A stretch of 64,000 bases of DNA from an uncultured delta proteobacterium (GCA_963760795.1 CAVXEP010000019.1:256001-320000); one strand, 5' to 3'; counted from the stretch's first letter, positions 2,619-21,523 are shown. Made by a program: numbers and translations. Notes: generated from the letters alone by a model not told the origin.

Positions 2619-3842
2619 TCACGATGTGTAGGTTGGGGTCGGTAGGATTTTTGCGCTGCGGGGCAATAGCAGTGCCATGAGGGCGACGCTGATAAACGAA
2701 AGAATGCCTAACATCCAGAAAATCGTCGGCAGCTCTGTGCTGACTAACAATAGCCCGACGATGGAGGTCGAGGTGGTTTTCGAGACCTGCTGGATCAATC
2801 TGTCGAAGGAGACGATACCGCCGCGCAGTTCCGCCGGCGCATTCTGTGTCAGCAGGCTTTTCTGCATGGGCGAGATCACGCCATTGGCGAGGCCGTAGAA
2901 AAACAATGCGCCGCCGATCAGCCAGACATCAGGAATGAACGGCACGGCCAAGACTGATGCGCCGCTGACGACGAAAGCGAGAAACAAGATCCTCGCCTTG
3001 TCGCGGCCAGTGGCGATGCGGCCGGCTTGGCTCGATGTCGCCATGGCACCGATCGCGAAAAAGACGTAGAGCAAGCCAGCGGTGGCGGTCGAGATGCCAT
3101 GGGTACGCACCAAGAAGAGCGGAAAATAAGTGAGAAATCCATAGTCGAGAAAAAAACGCAGGAAGCCGGCGGTGAATGCGATCATCAGTCGGGGATGGCG
3201 TGTCAAGCGCAGGATGTCGCCCACATAGTTTGCCGCCGGCTGTTTCTGCTTGCCTTTAGTCTCGGGCATGCAAAACAGCGCGACGAGACCCAAGGGAATC
3301 GCCAGGAGATAAAAGACAAAGGGCCAGAACCAGGCGATGGTTGCCAGCAGTCCGCCCAACGGTGGAAAGATGAAATAGCCGATGCGGTCGAGAAAAACTT
3401 TCAGACCCTGGCCGCTGACTTCCTTGTCGCCTTCCAACAAATCGCCGATCAAGACGATAGTCAGCGGGATCACGGCGCTGAAGCCGACGCCTTGCAGCGT
3501 GCGAAAAACCAGCAGCCAAGTATAGCTGGGCGCAAACGCCATGGCCCCACCGAACAGGCCAAACATCATTAATCCATAAGCCAGCAGCAGGCGCCGGCCG
3601 TAGAGATCGGCGATGAAGCCGAAAACCGGCGACAAGAAAATCGCCGGCGCGGTAAACAGCGTCATGATCCACGACAGTTGCGCGTCGCTCACCTGAAACG
3701 GCTGGGTGAGCGCCGGCAAAGCCGGCTGGATGAAGTTGACGCCCATCATCAGCGCCAGGCTTGCGGCGTAGACAATGCTCAACGCGCGGGCCTTTTCCGG
3801 CGCGAGTTTGTCGAGACCGAAGAAGGCCGCGATGGAGTGCAT
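2619..3842 (-). CDS. MFS transporter
   Basis: About 12 hydrophobic segments; motif A GFIADLYGRR. Confidence 0.9.
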   Translation of the reverse strand: MHSIAAFFGLDKLAPEKARALSIVYAASLALMMGVNFIQPALPALTQPFQVSDAQLSWIMTLFTAPAIFLSPVFGFIADLYGRRLLLAYGLMMFGLFGGAMAFAPSYTWLLVFRTLQGVGFSAVIPLTIVLIGDLLEGDKEVSGQGLKVFLDRIGYFIFPPLGGLLATIAWFWPFVFYLLAIPLGLVALFCMPETKGKQKQPAANYVGDILRLTRHPRLMIAFTAGFLRFFLDYGFLTYFPLFLVRTHGISTATAGLLYVFFAIGAMATSSQAGRIATGRDKARILFLAFVVSGASVLAVPFIPDVWLIGGALFFYGLANGVISPMQKSLLTQNAPAELRGGIVSFDRLIQQVSKTTSTSIVGLLLVSTELPTIFWMLGILSFISVALMALLLPRSAKILPTPTYTS

Positions 3843-18807: not shown

Positions 18808-20427
18808 ATGATGCGATTCAAAGGTGCAATTGTCGGATGTCTTTTGATCTCGGAGACGGTTCACGCGCAGCCGGCGCCGAAGACGGTTATAAAACTTGAC
18901 GGTTTGCCGTCTTGTTCAGAGATATTGCCAAGTAAGAAAGAAGTTGCCGGCAATAGCTCGGGGCCGGACGATTGCCGTATCCTTTCGCAGCAGAAGGTGT
19001 TCAGCATTCAAGGCCAGGTGTTCGAGCGCATGGAGCTGCGCATTAGCGGCAACGTCGAAGGTTGGGCGGTGAAGGATGGCCGGCGCGGTAATTATTTCAA
19101 CGACGCGCCGGATATTGTTTTCGCCCAGTCGGAAAATCCCGGCAAACGTTTCAAAGGTATCGCCCGATACGACGGCGGCACCGGCCATGGCATGTCGTTG
19201 TTTTTTCCGGCGGACCCGAAGCATTGGAACGGCAAGCTGTTCGTCACCGCCCATGGCGCCGGTTCCTATGGCTCGGTGGGCACGCTGTTGCCGCGCGATC
19301 CCAAGGCGGACTTCAATTCGCTGCTCAATATCAATCGTTTTGCAGGGTTGTTGATCGACAAAGGTTATGCCGTGGCGCATACGCTGCGCTCAGCCGATCG
19401 CCTCGGCGGCGACGTCGCGGCATCCCTCGAAGACGGCACGACGCTCAACGTCAACGTCAGCACCCACGCCGGTTTCATCGTCAGCTTCGCCAAGAGCGCG
19501 GAAAATATGCTGCAAGCCAAACTCGGGCGCAAGCCGCAGAAGACTTACTTCTACGGGTTTTCGGCAGGCGGTTTTCTTGGCCGGTTGGTGCAGTATCATT
19601 CAGGCTTTAACCGCGACGACGATGGCAGTGCGATGTTCGACGGTTTCATAGTGGACGATGCCGGCGGCGGCGACTGGCGACCGATTTTGCTCGCCGACGG
19701 CAAGGACACGCTGCTTACCAGCGATGACGACAAACGCCGATTCGTGCCGCAGATCGATATCACGCATCAGCTCGATGTCGGTGACAACGACAGCAGCATT
19801 CGCAAAAAACGGGAGAATGCCTTGTTGCTTAAACAAAAAGGGCTGGCGGACAAACATCGCGTCTACGAGATCAAGGGCTTGGCGCATATCGACGCCGGCC
19901 TGGTGTCGCGCGCTGACCATGTCGCGCAAGCACTGGATTTGGGCGGGATTATGGACGCCTTGGTTGACCGTTTGGATGAGTGGGTGGTCGCGGGTAAAGC
20001 GCCGCCGCCGTCACGCGCGGTAATTCCTGCGCTGGGCGGCAAGAGCGAAGCCGTCGCGATGCCGGAGGTCGCCTGCCCTTTGGGCGTCTATCATATTTTT
20101 CCAGAAGTCTTGGGCGAGTCCCTGCGCGGTAGTCAGGAAACATCTTTTGCCGCTTTCGACGGTATGAATCTCGAACCGCTGGATGCGCGCGGGAAGCTGG
20201 TCGACATGAACGGTAACGGGGCGCGGGACCAGCGTGAGACGGTGGAGCAGGCGTGGCGGCGGCTCGGATTGCTCAAGGCCAATGAAACGTTTAACCGTGC
20301 GAAGTATGTTGCCTGCGTAACCCAAGCCGCGACAGCGCTGGCAAAAGACGGGTTCCTGCCGGCGCGGGTGGTGAACCACTATGTTAGTAAGGCGCATTCG
20401 GCGCCGTTGGTTCAGATAGCTCGCTGA
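18808..20427 (+). CDS. secreted alpha/beta hydrolase-fold protein of unknown function
   Basis: Signal-like N-terminus, WNGKLFV, YFYGFSAGG elbow, RVYEIKGLAH; EF-hand-like DMNGNGARD. Confidence 0.7.
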   Translation: MMRFKGAIVGCLLISETVHAQPAPKTVIKLDGLPSCSEILPSKKEVAGNSSGPDDCRILSQQKVFSIQGQVFERMELRISGNVEGWAVKDGRRGNYFNDAPDIVFAQSENPGKRFKGIARYDGGTGHGMSLFFPADPKHWNGKLFVTAHGAGSYGSVGTLLPRDPKADFNSLLNINRFAGLLIDKGYAVAHTLRSADRLGGDVAASLEDGTTLNVNVSTHAGFIVSFAKSAENMLQAKLGRKPQKTYFYGFSAGGFLGRLVQYHSGFNRDDDGSAMFDGFIVDDAGGGDWRPILLADGKDTLLTSDDDKRRFVPQIDITHQLDVGDNDSSIRKKRENALLLKQKGLADKHRVYEIKGLAHIDAGLVSRADHVAQALDLGGIMDALVDRLDEWVVAGKAPPPSRAVIPALGGKSEAVAMPEVACPLGVYHIFPEVLGESLRGSQETSFAAFDGMNLEPLDARGKLVDMNGNGARDQRETVEQAWRRLGLLKANETFNRAKYVACVTQAATALAKDGFLPARVVNHYVSKAHSAPLVQIAR

Positions 20428-20601
20428 CAGAAATCGAAACACTCGTGCAGGCTGATTCTTGAGCGGCGTTGAAATTTCTTGGAATTCGCGAAAATACCAG
20501 ACTGATTAACAGGTCGACGGACGCGCAGCCTTTGAGATTTGTCGATTGCTGTGAGTGTAACTTTGAATCAATTTATTTTTTTATGTCGCTCAATTATCTT
20601 A

Positions 20602-20630
20602 TTGACAGAGAAAAGCCACTTTCGTAAACT
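20602..20630 (+). promoter_or_regulatory. sigma70-type promoter
   Basis: TTGACA (20602-20607), 17-nt spacer, TAAACT (20625-20630); AT-rich upstream region. Confidence 0.8.
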
Positions 20631-20662
20631 AACGATCAGCAGGGAAAGGAGGTGGTCCAGAC

Positions 20663-20704
20663 ATGATTGATTTAAGTACTGGCTGTGAGGTGGCTGAGAC
20701 TTAG
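20663..20704 (+). CDS. 13-aa small ORF MIDLSTGCEVAET
   Basis: ATG 10 nt after GGAGG of a very strong SD; TAG at 20702-20704. Confidence 0.45.
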   Translation: MIDLSTGCEVAET

Positions 20705-20772
20705 GCTCTAGGCGGCGACTCTGAATGGAGATTCGGGCCTAGAGCCTGAGAATCTCCCTCAGCCACCGCAGT

Positions 20773-20825
20773 GGCCCGCTGCACCGGTCGCGCAAGCTGC
20801 CGAGTGTAGCGGGCCTTTTATTTTT
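20773..20825 (+). terminator. intrinsic terminator
   Basis: GGCCCGCTGCAC...GTGTAGCGGGCC stem followed by TTTTATTTTT; overlaps the stop of the convergent HEAT gene. Confidence 0.8.
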
Positions 20826-21523
20826 GCAGCATTTTAAGTGCCGAATCGGCGCTCTTTTTGATCTGCCCATTGCCGTTCCGGCTCGCTTCGTTCAACGCCC
20901 GCATAAATTCTTCATCCGGCGACCCTAGACTAGCCAGGGTTACGGCGACTACGTTTTTCACGCGGTCATCTGCATCATGCAAATAAGTAGCTAGAAGCTT
21001 TTGCCGGACGGCGGCATCGACATCGGTTCTCACTTTCAGACTGGTAGCGGCGGCAACGCGCACTGTCGGTTCTTCGTCGTCCAACGCCTGCAACATTGCT
21101 AGCCGACTCTACAGCGTCGTGCAAAGCCAAGTCGCGCAGACAGTAGAGCGCCATGCGTTTCTGATTGGCGCTGCCAGTCACGCATAGTTCTACCAGTAGC
21201 GGGACCACGGCGCCTTCCTGCTGGGCGATGCGCACGAGCAGCAGGCCGTTGGCCCAGCGAATATCCGGTTCGCGGTGATCGAGGGCGTCGAGTAGTGTGC
21301 GAATCACAACTCCCGAAGGCCGGGCTTGATGGCCGAGAATGTAAGCGACCGGCCAATAGTTTCTGTGATCCGCTTCGCTGAGGCGATTATGGAGTGCTTG
21401 TCTAAGAGTTTCGGAAGTCTCGGCCAATGCGATTAGCTTGTCGACGGCGGCGCGGATCGTTGGCTTGTCGGGATGATCGAGGGCGGCGATGAGATCGGTA
21501 ATCTCGCGTGGCTCGGTGGTCAT
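20818..21523 (-). CDS. HEAT-repeat (PBS lyase-like) protein; frameshift near 21100
   Basis: Repeats LIAALDHPDKPTIRAA, LLDALDHREPDIRWA, LQALDDEEPTVRVAAA across two ORFs. Confidence 0.8.

Follow-up and report, generated by a model that had tools for sequence, protein, structure and literature searches.

A divergent homolog of the Ms_IGR-5 RNA with a 16S rRNA-complementary block and a conserved short reading frame in an uncultured delta proteobacterium

Locus and Transcript

The stretch of DNA analyzed here (the window) comprises 64,000 nucleotides (nt) from an uncultured delta proteobacterium (GCA_963760795.1 CAVXEP010000019.1:256001-320000). Positions 20602-20825 of the window hold, on the plus strand, a short transcription unit that a preliminary description, made from the sequence alone, had presented as a stand-alone RNA with a long match to the 3′ end of 16S rRNA, a 13-codon open reading frame (ORF) and a long hairpin. 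We find that it is a real, expressed and conserved RNA. Moreover, it is a divergent homolog of the Rfam family Ms_IGR-5 (RF02471), narrowly missed by the current Rfam model and not a formally admitted member of the family.

All features of the unit lie on the plus strand. Its promoter is present as described, with the −35 hexamer TTGACA (20602-20607), seen both by reading the sequence and in a promoter scan, and the −10 hexamer TAAACT (20625-20630) separated by a 17-nt spacer. This site has 10 of 12 matches in the scan and is the only promoter-like site within 20000-21500; TTGAC is invariant in 20/20 order-level homologs. The predicted transcript of ∼188 nt extends from 20638, a start placed by the −10 hexamer and position 1 of the RF02471 model, to the U tract ending at 20825. 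The proposed intrinsic terminator is also there, as a long stem (20773-20815) followed by the U tract TTTTATTTTT (20816-20825) in the fold, and a similar hairpin with a U run occurs in the displayed homologs of the order. This long-stem terminator is absent from the output of a simple terminator scan and is visible only in the fold. The fold of 20637-20825 has an energy of −96.7 kcal/mol (z-score −6.5), and 0/200 shuffled sequences fold as well. The unit serves no larger gene, in agreement with the preliminary description: the upstream ORF, encoding an alpha/beta-hydrolase, ends at 20427, and no same-strand gene lies 3′ of the unit, where convergent genes for a HEAT-repeat protein and then an M24 peptidase follow on the minus strand.

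Transcription

Parts of the region 20560-20860 are contained in 24 public sequencing runs from 16 studies. Sixteen of these runs are recorded as RNA, with soil, rhizosphere, ice, sediment and mine drainage as their sources. The RNA runs share 0.60-0.68 of the query 20560-20860, in agreement with the fraction taken up by the unit. Compared with 20450-20950, four RNA runs from four studies yielded one metatranscriptome contig each, at least 99% alike. The contigs start at 20646-20648 and end at 20819 (followed by unrelated sequence), 20832, 20846 and 20900; 20450-20636 and 20909-20950 are uncovered by the RNA contigs of the four runs, while contigs do not prove absence. Runs as small as 17 and 47 million letters contain the RNA, and a depth of 35 was attained in an RNA run of 46.5 million letters. 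This is good evidence for a discrete, abundant RNA; the boundaries are hinted at by the contigs, which show neither true RNA ends nor the strand.

Homologs of the unit have been reported as expressed in Streptomyces lividans and S. avermitilis (accessible parts of PMC8079986 and PMC8780764) and as ribosome-protected in Mycobacterium abscessus and M. smegmatis (accessible part of PMC4974804).

Homology to Ms_IGR-5

The RF02471 model, described in Rfam as "Actinobacteria sRNA" (sRNA, small RNA), aligns with 20638-20822 over its entire length (all 184 model positions, 1-184), with 42.0 bits compared to the gathering cut-off of 45. The E-value is 3e-8 for a search of 501 nt and 9.3e-8 for the 6.58-Mb genome, in which 20638-20822 is the only RF02471 copy. 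A copy from the same genus scores 46.2 bits, above the cut-off. The preliminary description had treated a match to a known Rfam family as incompatible with an undescribed RNA. In substance such a match exists (E 9.3e-8), although not at the gathering threshold, at which an Rfam scan of the window gave 0 matches. Given the full-length alignment and the same-genus copy, the RNA can no longer be called undescribed.

For comparison, the RF02471 scores are 175.8 bits for a Mycobacterium locus, 117 for Gordonia and 62-84 for three other actinobacterial loci. Outside of this group, two Ignavibacteriales metagenome-assembled genomes (MAGs) score 48.6 and 47.5 bits, and loci from Terriglobales, Bryobacterales, Blastocatellia, Nitrospirota and Leptospira score under the cut-off. 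Control genomes gave matches in Caulobacter and Thermus at E ≤ 1 and none at E ≤ 0.01. We take a CC2171 match (13.2 bits) and microRNA matches in the window to be due to chance. The possible relationship with ncRv0810 was set aside as concerning another element. A reading of the GAAUUCC...CACC segment as resembling transfer-messenger RNA (tmRNA) or tRNA was considered by eye only and dropped, as the unit has no Rfam tmRNA or tRNA match.

Ms_IGR-5 (IGR-5 or ncMSMEG15794c of M. smegmatis) was reportedly named by Li et al. in 2013. It has been called "validated but yet uncharacterized", with its locus placed between MSMEG_5794 and MSMEG_5795 (accessible parts of bioRxiv 10.1101/2021.12.14.472595 and PMC10454040). 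The M. smegmatis RNA is NAD-capped, with A at position +1, and the ORF and the 16S match are not mentioned in its description in the accessible part of the same preprint (bioRxiv 10.1101/2021.12.14.472595). In the literature searched, we found no function, ORF or 16S match ascribed to Ms_IGR-5, while supplementary tables may list the ORF; the locus is absent from the main text of Shell et al. (2015).

The unit resembles Ms_IGR-5 in its full-length alignment, in being, judging by its promoter, terminator and contigs, a probable stand-alone transcript and in occurring once per genome. The order of blocks is also the same: a paired 5′ end, GGAAGGAGGUGGUCC, a short frame, GUGAGGUGGC, a variable hairpin, GAAUUCC, CAGNCACC and a terminator. 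It differs in that the window copy falls under the 45-bit cut-off and that helix P2 (see below) is a 14-bp helix in the window copy. Furthermore, the window's host is not an actinobacterium; this conflicts with the description of the family and not with the RNA itself. The unit is probably a Binatia-type homolog.

Phyletic Distribution

Of 41 relatives, 35 carry one copy each. We then scanned 185,579 species genomes with a pattern consisting of AAGGAGGTGGTC, a 20-50-nt gap and TGYGAGGTGRC, and found at least 120 loci. By record labels, the matches listed include at least 94 from Actinomycetota, at least nine from Acidobacteriota, at least two each from Nitrospirota and Ignavibacteriales, and at least one from Leptospira weilii. 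Also among the matches listed are at least ten of the window's sequence type (Candidatus Binatia; MAGs labeled Deltaproteobacteria or Syntrophobacter(ales)). One listed match (L073) was rejected as a chance match inside a gene. Another listed match, L076, comes from a "Gammaproteobacteria" MAG and is a Mycobacterium-type copy, with the peptide LVDLWTCEVAAS and mycobacterial-looking flanks; judging by these features, the contig is probably mis-binned.

Within larger groups the presence of the RNA varies. In the class around the Mycobacterium locus, 108/151 sampled genomes carry a copy, 107 of them above the cut-off; in the genus around the Leptospira locus, all 22/22 genomes do. A strict pattern recovered a copy in 39/201 genomes of the class around a Terriglobales locus. 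In the window's own phylum a copy was found in 4/151 genomes, three of them from the window's class. Within groups the copy is nearly always single. The family is therefore patchy and spans at least five phyla. The conclusions are independent of the genomes marked as unpublished, namely of G004 (one of the 35 relatives and the source of L028, which is part of the ORF counts), of G192 (the genome of L037 and one row of the alignment A2 used below) and of G421, G429, G438, G444, G450 and G457 (six of the 108 genomes).

In two Terriglobales loci, L037 (1024-1385, 4832-4903) and L044 (60-421, 1646-1717), the homolog lies between tmRNA and tRNA genes. The tmRNA gene is ∼0.9-3.1 kb upstream of the homolog on the opposite strand, and the tRNA gene begins ∼350 nt past the 16S-complementary block of the homolog. 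In an Intrasporangium locus (L148), a cyclic di-AMP riboswitch (RF00379, 53.3 bits; 2909-3111) was found ∼3.6 kb from the homolog.

Complementarity to 16S rRNA

Near its 5′ end the RNA carries a block complementary to the 16S rRNA 3′ end, that is, an extended Shine-Dalgarno (SD) sequence, at 20643-20660, with the conserved core at 20644-20657. In the window's genome, the 16S gene ends in ...CTGCGGCTGGATCACCTCCTTTCT, also written ...CTGGATCACCTCCTTTCT. The preliminary description had proposed a match of ∼17 nt with one wobble. The match itself is present, as GAAAGGAGGTGGTCCAG occupies 20644-20660, while the pairing with the genome's own 16S tail extends over 18 contiguous nt (20643-20660) and includes two G·U pairs, at 20643 and 20655. 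Pairing of the last CAG of the block would presumably require opening of the base of 16S helix 45.

The block is conserved far beyond chance. GAAAGGAGGTGGTC (20644-20657) is invariant in 20/20 order-level homologs and is the only part of the block that is invariant across the order; by our own arithmetic, ∼5e-4 occurrences of a fixed 14-mer are expected by chance in 64 kb on both strands. An invariant 13-14-nt 16S-complementary block, beginning 6-7 nt from the predicted 5′ end, is present in all loci found. The 12-mer AAGGAGGTGRTC has five sites in the genome, one being the unit and one antisense to the 16S gene, with ∼1.6 expected (own arithmetic).

The SD (GAGGUGGUC) and the conserved ORF block (GAGGUGGCU) are near-repeats. 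Therefore, the 3′ strand of helix P1 (CCACC) could pair with either of them, an option that would explain why the SD has G instead of the A that would match 16S rRNA perfectly.

By eye, several mycobacterial homologs (e.g., L040, L043, L096 and L112) hold GGAAUCACCUGC in apical P2; its AUCACCU also occurs in the 16S 3′ tail, and pairing with AGGUGGU of the same RNA would be possible. In the window's genome (G000), contigs C12 (372788; L152) and C29 (329220; L153) are identical over 110 nt or more around GATCACCTCCTT; this may be a duplicated gene or a redundancy in an assembly with 6% contamination.

Conservation of the Reading Frame

The proposed ORF is present, with ATG at 20663 and 13 codons (MIDLSTGCEVAET) followed by TAG (20702-20704), the whole spanning 20663-20704. 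Its start, frame and stop are kept in homologs far beyond chance. The first set consisted of 120 distinct SD-to-stop stretches collected with the pattern that forces TGY (the "Cys" codon) and GAGGTGRC. A frame-0 start 7-13 nt past GGAGG and open to the conserved block occurs in 119/120, and none occurs in frames 1 and 2. The start codons are ATG in 51, TTG in 54 and GTG in 14, located 2-8 nt, mostly 5-7, past the end of the conserved 16S-complementary block (...GGTC). A fixed stop, six codons past the "Cys" codon, is found in 120/120 (TAG in 106, TAA in six, TGA in eight) and never in the shifted frames. The length of the encoded peptide varies from 11 to 19 residues; among the relatives, changes in length stay in frame, yielding 11, 12 or 13 codons.

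Since the first pattern forced TGY, we gathered 40 further homologs with a pattern forcing only GAGGTGRC: 36 acidobacterial ones and four from the genus of the Leptospira locus. Left out of this second set were G330 (contig edge), G259:C19 (unrelated-looking), G308:C150 (duplicate), and G192 and G194 (already included before). A frame-0 start and the fixed stop were found in 40/40, and a frame-2 start in one. Thus, the two sets together have an in-frame start in 159/160 and the fixed stop in 160/160 distinct homologs.

The peptide is much freer than the frame. In the second set the codon before GAG is AGT (10), TGT (7), CGN (16), GGT (4), CAG (2) or AAC (1), that is, the "Cys" codon is replaced by codons for Ser, Arg, Gly, Gln or Asn in 33/40 homologs. 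These peptides, up to 20 residues long, have only Glu-Val-Ala/Thr in common, and we found no repeated or conserved control codons for one amino acid in this set. Selection on the peptide as such was not seen in these comparisons; the constant Glu-Val-Ala/Thr coincides with the 5′ strand of P1. The proposal that the unit is a micropeptide mRNA is thereby weakened, as nothing in the peptide is conserved beyond the helix-strand codons.

Secondary Structure

Four helices, P-A, P0, P1 and P2, involve the ORF and its surroundings. The hairpin of the preliminary description is present almost exactly as named: 20683-20686 and 20689-20698 pair with 20758-20771, and 20700-20713 with 20737-20750. The 3′ half of the ORF and its stop do lie within this hairpin, and the helix covaries.

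In P-A, GCAG (20639-20642) pairs with CUGU (20683-20686), which overlaps the "Cys" codon. The same CUGU can alternatively pair with GCAG at 20768-20771 as an extension of P1, as it does in the minimum-energy fold. Homologs have ACACA, ACGCA or CACUG on the 5′ side with UGUG, UGCG or CAGUG as partners. In 72 distinct combinations, the third base of the "Cys" codon faces its partner as A:U in 36, G:C in 21 and G:U in six, has no partner in nine, and in none forms an A/C mismatch; the observed helix length was reached by 0/1000 partner shuffles.

In P0, CCAGAC (20657-20662) pairs with GU.CUGG (20676-20682) in the fold, leaving the start codon in the loop. More generally, GGUCC at the 3′ end of the 16S-complementary block pairs with GGAC or GACC just 5′ of the "Cys" codon. 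The SD extension and the 11 nt preceding the "Cys" codon form a stem of at least 5 bp in 79/120 sequences, compared to 15.5% of shuffles. The 3′ end of the partner strand occurs in all three codon registers. Before Thr, codons for Trp, Arg and Gly are found, and by our reading each of them contributes the GG that P0 pairs with CC in the SD extension.

The 5′ strand of P1, GGUGGCUGAG (20689-20698), corresponds to ORF codons 9-12; in the fold, the 3′ strand, CUCAGCCACC followed by GCAG (20758-20771), pairs with 20683-20686 and 20689-20698. In the family, GGUG and the next 5-6 nt (codons Val-Ala-x-x) pair with ...CAGNCACC, and the variants include CUGAG/CUCAG, CUGCG/CGCAG, CUACG/CGUAG, CUGCC/GGCAG, CCACC/GGUGG, CUUUCC/GGAAG and CUCG/CGAG. 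A comparison of duplex energies against whole downstream regions gave a matched mean of −20.7 versus −18.9 kcal/mol, with 25/91 in the best tenth and 2/91 beating every mismatched partner. This test was noisy, and we therefore replaced it with one in which the 3′ strand was located via the adjoining RAAUYCC motif and not via pairing. Here, an extension of P1 by at least five pairs was found in 38/58 haplotypes versus 27.6% of mismatched partners, and 0/2000 shuffles reached the observed mean.

The 5′ strand of P2 (20700-20713) contains the stop codon, and its 3′ strand lies at 20737-20750 in the fold. Between the 3′ strands of P2 and P1, opposite the stop codon, the 7-nt bulge AAUCUCC (20751-20757; RAAUYCC in the family) is unpaired in the fold, and in the alignments it is conserved across phyla. 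As an alternative to the 14-bp P2, GGAGAUUC (20728-20735) can pair with GAAUCUCC (20750-20757), which includes the bulge. This alternative type of hairpin, CGGAAUUGA...UCAAUUCCG, is the only one present in the order's high-GC family (g3).

Stem covariation, which the preliminary description had recommended checking, is present. The four helices were assessed together in an alignment (A2) of 50 sequences, one per P1 haplotype, comprising actinobacterial, Binatia-type, acidobacterial and Ignavibacteriales copies; from the 58 haplotypes, L049, L050, L055 and L139 were dropped because of an uncertain anchor and L036, L052, L070 and L123 because of great length. In A2, 85.0% of cells pair, compared to 78.5% in shuffles (0/500 reach the observed value) and 26-40% in slid alignments. 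Changes on both sides are seen in 14/26 pairs, with a covariation score of 0.255 versus 0.160, and P2, the fourth helix, has such changes in 7/8 pairs. The Binatia-type rows are one column out of register and were counted as unpaired, hence the A2 figures are conservative for those rows.

Gene Neighborhood

The HEAT-repeat gene adjoins the unit in every related locus examined, while the direction of the unit with respect to the HEAT-repeat and Cu-oxidase_4 genes reverses from one family of the order to another. No neighbor gene common across phyla was found; this is a weak negative, as the greedy choice of ORFs left many high-GC ORFs without a Pfam match.

In the window, the HEAT-repeat gene (20818-21523, minus strand) is split into two ORFs that lie in different frames and overlap, 20818-21096 (92 aa) and 20975-21523 (182 aa). 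Since relatives carry this gene as a single ORF of ∼260 aa, this suggests a frameshift, which may be real or an assembly error. The stop of the HEAT-repeat gene overlaps the U tract of the RNA's terminator, and the terminator hairpin may therefore serve termination on both strands.

Discussion

Judged from alignments and folds, every conserved codon of the mini-ORF is a strand of a covarying helix. We tentatively favor, at slightly less than an even chance, the view that the unit is a ribosome-engaging, translation-gated riboregulator or sensor, in which translation, and not the peptide, is the selected function. In this scheme, a 30S subunit would dock on the extended SD (GGAGG), invade P0 and free the start codon held in the loop. 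The ribosome would then unzip P0, P-A and P1 in turn and terminate where P1 meets P2, across from the RAAUYCC bulge. With every round of translation, the RNA would pass from a closed to an open form and back. The open form could expose the 5′ end to decay or otherwise alter the RNA's own stability, or it could expose the bulge and the 3′ strand of P1 for pairing in trans. The 5′ strand of P0 is constant in spite of changes in its partner; it probably has a double task, pairing within P0 and pairing with the invariant 16S tail.

Several points weigh against this reading. The SD core is not systematically free, its median unpaired probability being 0.41 compared to 0.36 for the whole RNA in 80 transcripts, and the GGAGG core lies mostly 10-12 nt before the start codon, a long distance unless 16S rRNA pairs with the entire block. 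In constrained folds with a ribosome placed at the stop, the swap of the P1 3′ strand to the SD was seen in only 5/17 representatives. The shuffle controls overstate significance, as the homologs are related to one another. At the invariant Glu-Val-Ala/Thr, selection on the RNA and on the peptide cannot be separated, and both patterns forced GAGGTGRC. Finally, the mycobacterial ribosome footprints come from a one-sentence remark in the accessible part of PMC4974804; for the window's organism, translation and 30S binding are predictions.

An alternative that we consider unlikely, while giving it the most weight among the rivals, is that the RNA acts as a sponge for ribosomes or 30S subunits, or as a stabilizer, with a 30S subunit held near the 5′ end so that ribosomes are sequestered or a base-pairing, otherwise non-coding sRNA is shielded against decay from its 5′ end, the ORF being incidental. 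This would agree with the 14-18 nt complementary to the organism's own 16S tail, invariant in the order and present in all loci found, with the position of the block 6-7 nt from the predicted 5′ end, and with the presence of the RNA in runs as small as 17 and 47 million letters. A precedent is the STAB-SD of Bacillus thuringiensis cryIIIA, an SD-like 16S complement near the RNA 5′ end that is not known to start translation, and to which we take GAAAGGAGG to be identical. The unit, too, carries its 16S complement near the 5′ end; unlike STAB-SD, it has a conserved start codon 5-8 nt past the block, and a conserved frame and stop. An incidental ORF would leave unexplained both the frame-0 start in 159/160 homologs, versus one in the other two frames, and the single fixed stop written with all three stop codons, and titration of ribosomes would hinge on the copy number. 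Less probable again is a micropeptide gene, whose product of 11-20 residues would be functional and whose helices would only tune synthesis. The conserved start, frame and stop, the constant Glu-Val-Ala/Thr, the agreement of the window's N terminus MIDL with the translated Rfam consensus for Mycobacterium and the frequent extra Cys codons in some lineages would fit such a gene. However, outside of Glu-Val-Ala/Thr there is no conservation, the length varies, the "Cys" position differs in 33/40 homologs found without forcing it, and the third, synonymous position of the Cys codon changes in concert with the 5′ end. In addition, Trp, Arg and Gly share the GG that pairs with CC of the SD extension, and the register of that partner relative to the codons varies. 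Dual-function sRNAs such as SgrS/SgrT, RNAIII/hld and SR1/SR1P encode peptides that are conserved as peptides; the unit is likewise a small RNA with an ORF, and differs from them in conserving only helix-strand codons.

We regard as very improbable that the unit regulates locally, either as a leader-type attenuator or by read-through antisense to the convergent HEAT-repeat gene. The constant adjacency of that gene, one RNA contig extending 75 nt beyond the terminator into its 3′ end, and the attenuator-like succession of short ORF, hairpin and terminator would be in line with it; the absence of a following same-strand gene, the flips in orientation between the families of the order, the lack of a neighbor common across phyla and the lack of repeated control codons are not. 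In particular, the structural genes past the terminator and the control codons of trp and his leader-peptide attenuators are not found in the unit. Among known systems, one parallel is rnTrpL of Sinorhizobium meliloti, an sRNA that derives from an attenuator, contains a leader ORF and acts in trans (accessible part of PMC6614838). Both are small terminated RNAs with a mini-ORF, translated in rnTrpL and presumably in the unit, that overlaps alternative helices, and rnTrpL can act at a distance from the locus that encodes it; unlike the unit, which has neither a downstream operon nor conserved control codons, rnTrpL is made from an operon leader and senses Trp codons. A structural precedent for the extended pairing in the favored, translation-gated reading comes from Staphylococcus aureus, where pairing of the SD extends towards the start codon as a genome-wide rule for ordinary mRNAs (accessible part of PMC13009471). 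The unit's extension GGUGGUC is also on the start-codon side, while the unit differs in being a stand-alone RNA with a single invariant 13-14-nt block whose 3′ end doubles as a strand of P0.

Returning to the translation-gated riboregulator, a broader and more doubtful proposal, which we think of as possible but rather unlikely, is that Ms_IGR-5-type RNAs form an old, cross-phylum "ribosome-gated" class acting as a housekeeping sensor of translational status. The only job of the mini-ORF would be to let a ribosome unzip three helices, and the conformation of the RNA, hence its stability or its surface for pairing in trans, would report the capacity for translation initiation, elongation or termination. 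Such an RNA would be neither a condition-specific sRNA nor a coding gene.

Within the literature searched, the spread of the RNA across phyla, the conserved mini-ORF with a free peptide and the helices accounting for the conserved codons appear to be new. Ms_IGR-5 has been listed since 2013 as an actinobacterial sRNA with its function unassigned. Our results extend this type of RNA to Binatia-type bacteria, Acidobacteriota, Nitrospirota, Ignavibacteriales and Leptospira, and metatranscriptomes of soil, sediment and ice commonly contain it. This suggests that the RF02471 model and its description need widening. The hypothesis that translation serves as a structural switch would apply to an RNA that model organisms carry, among them M. 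smegmatis, Streptomyces and Leptospira biflexa.

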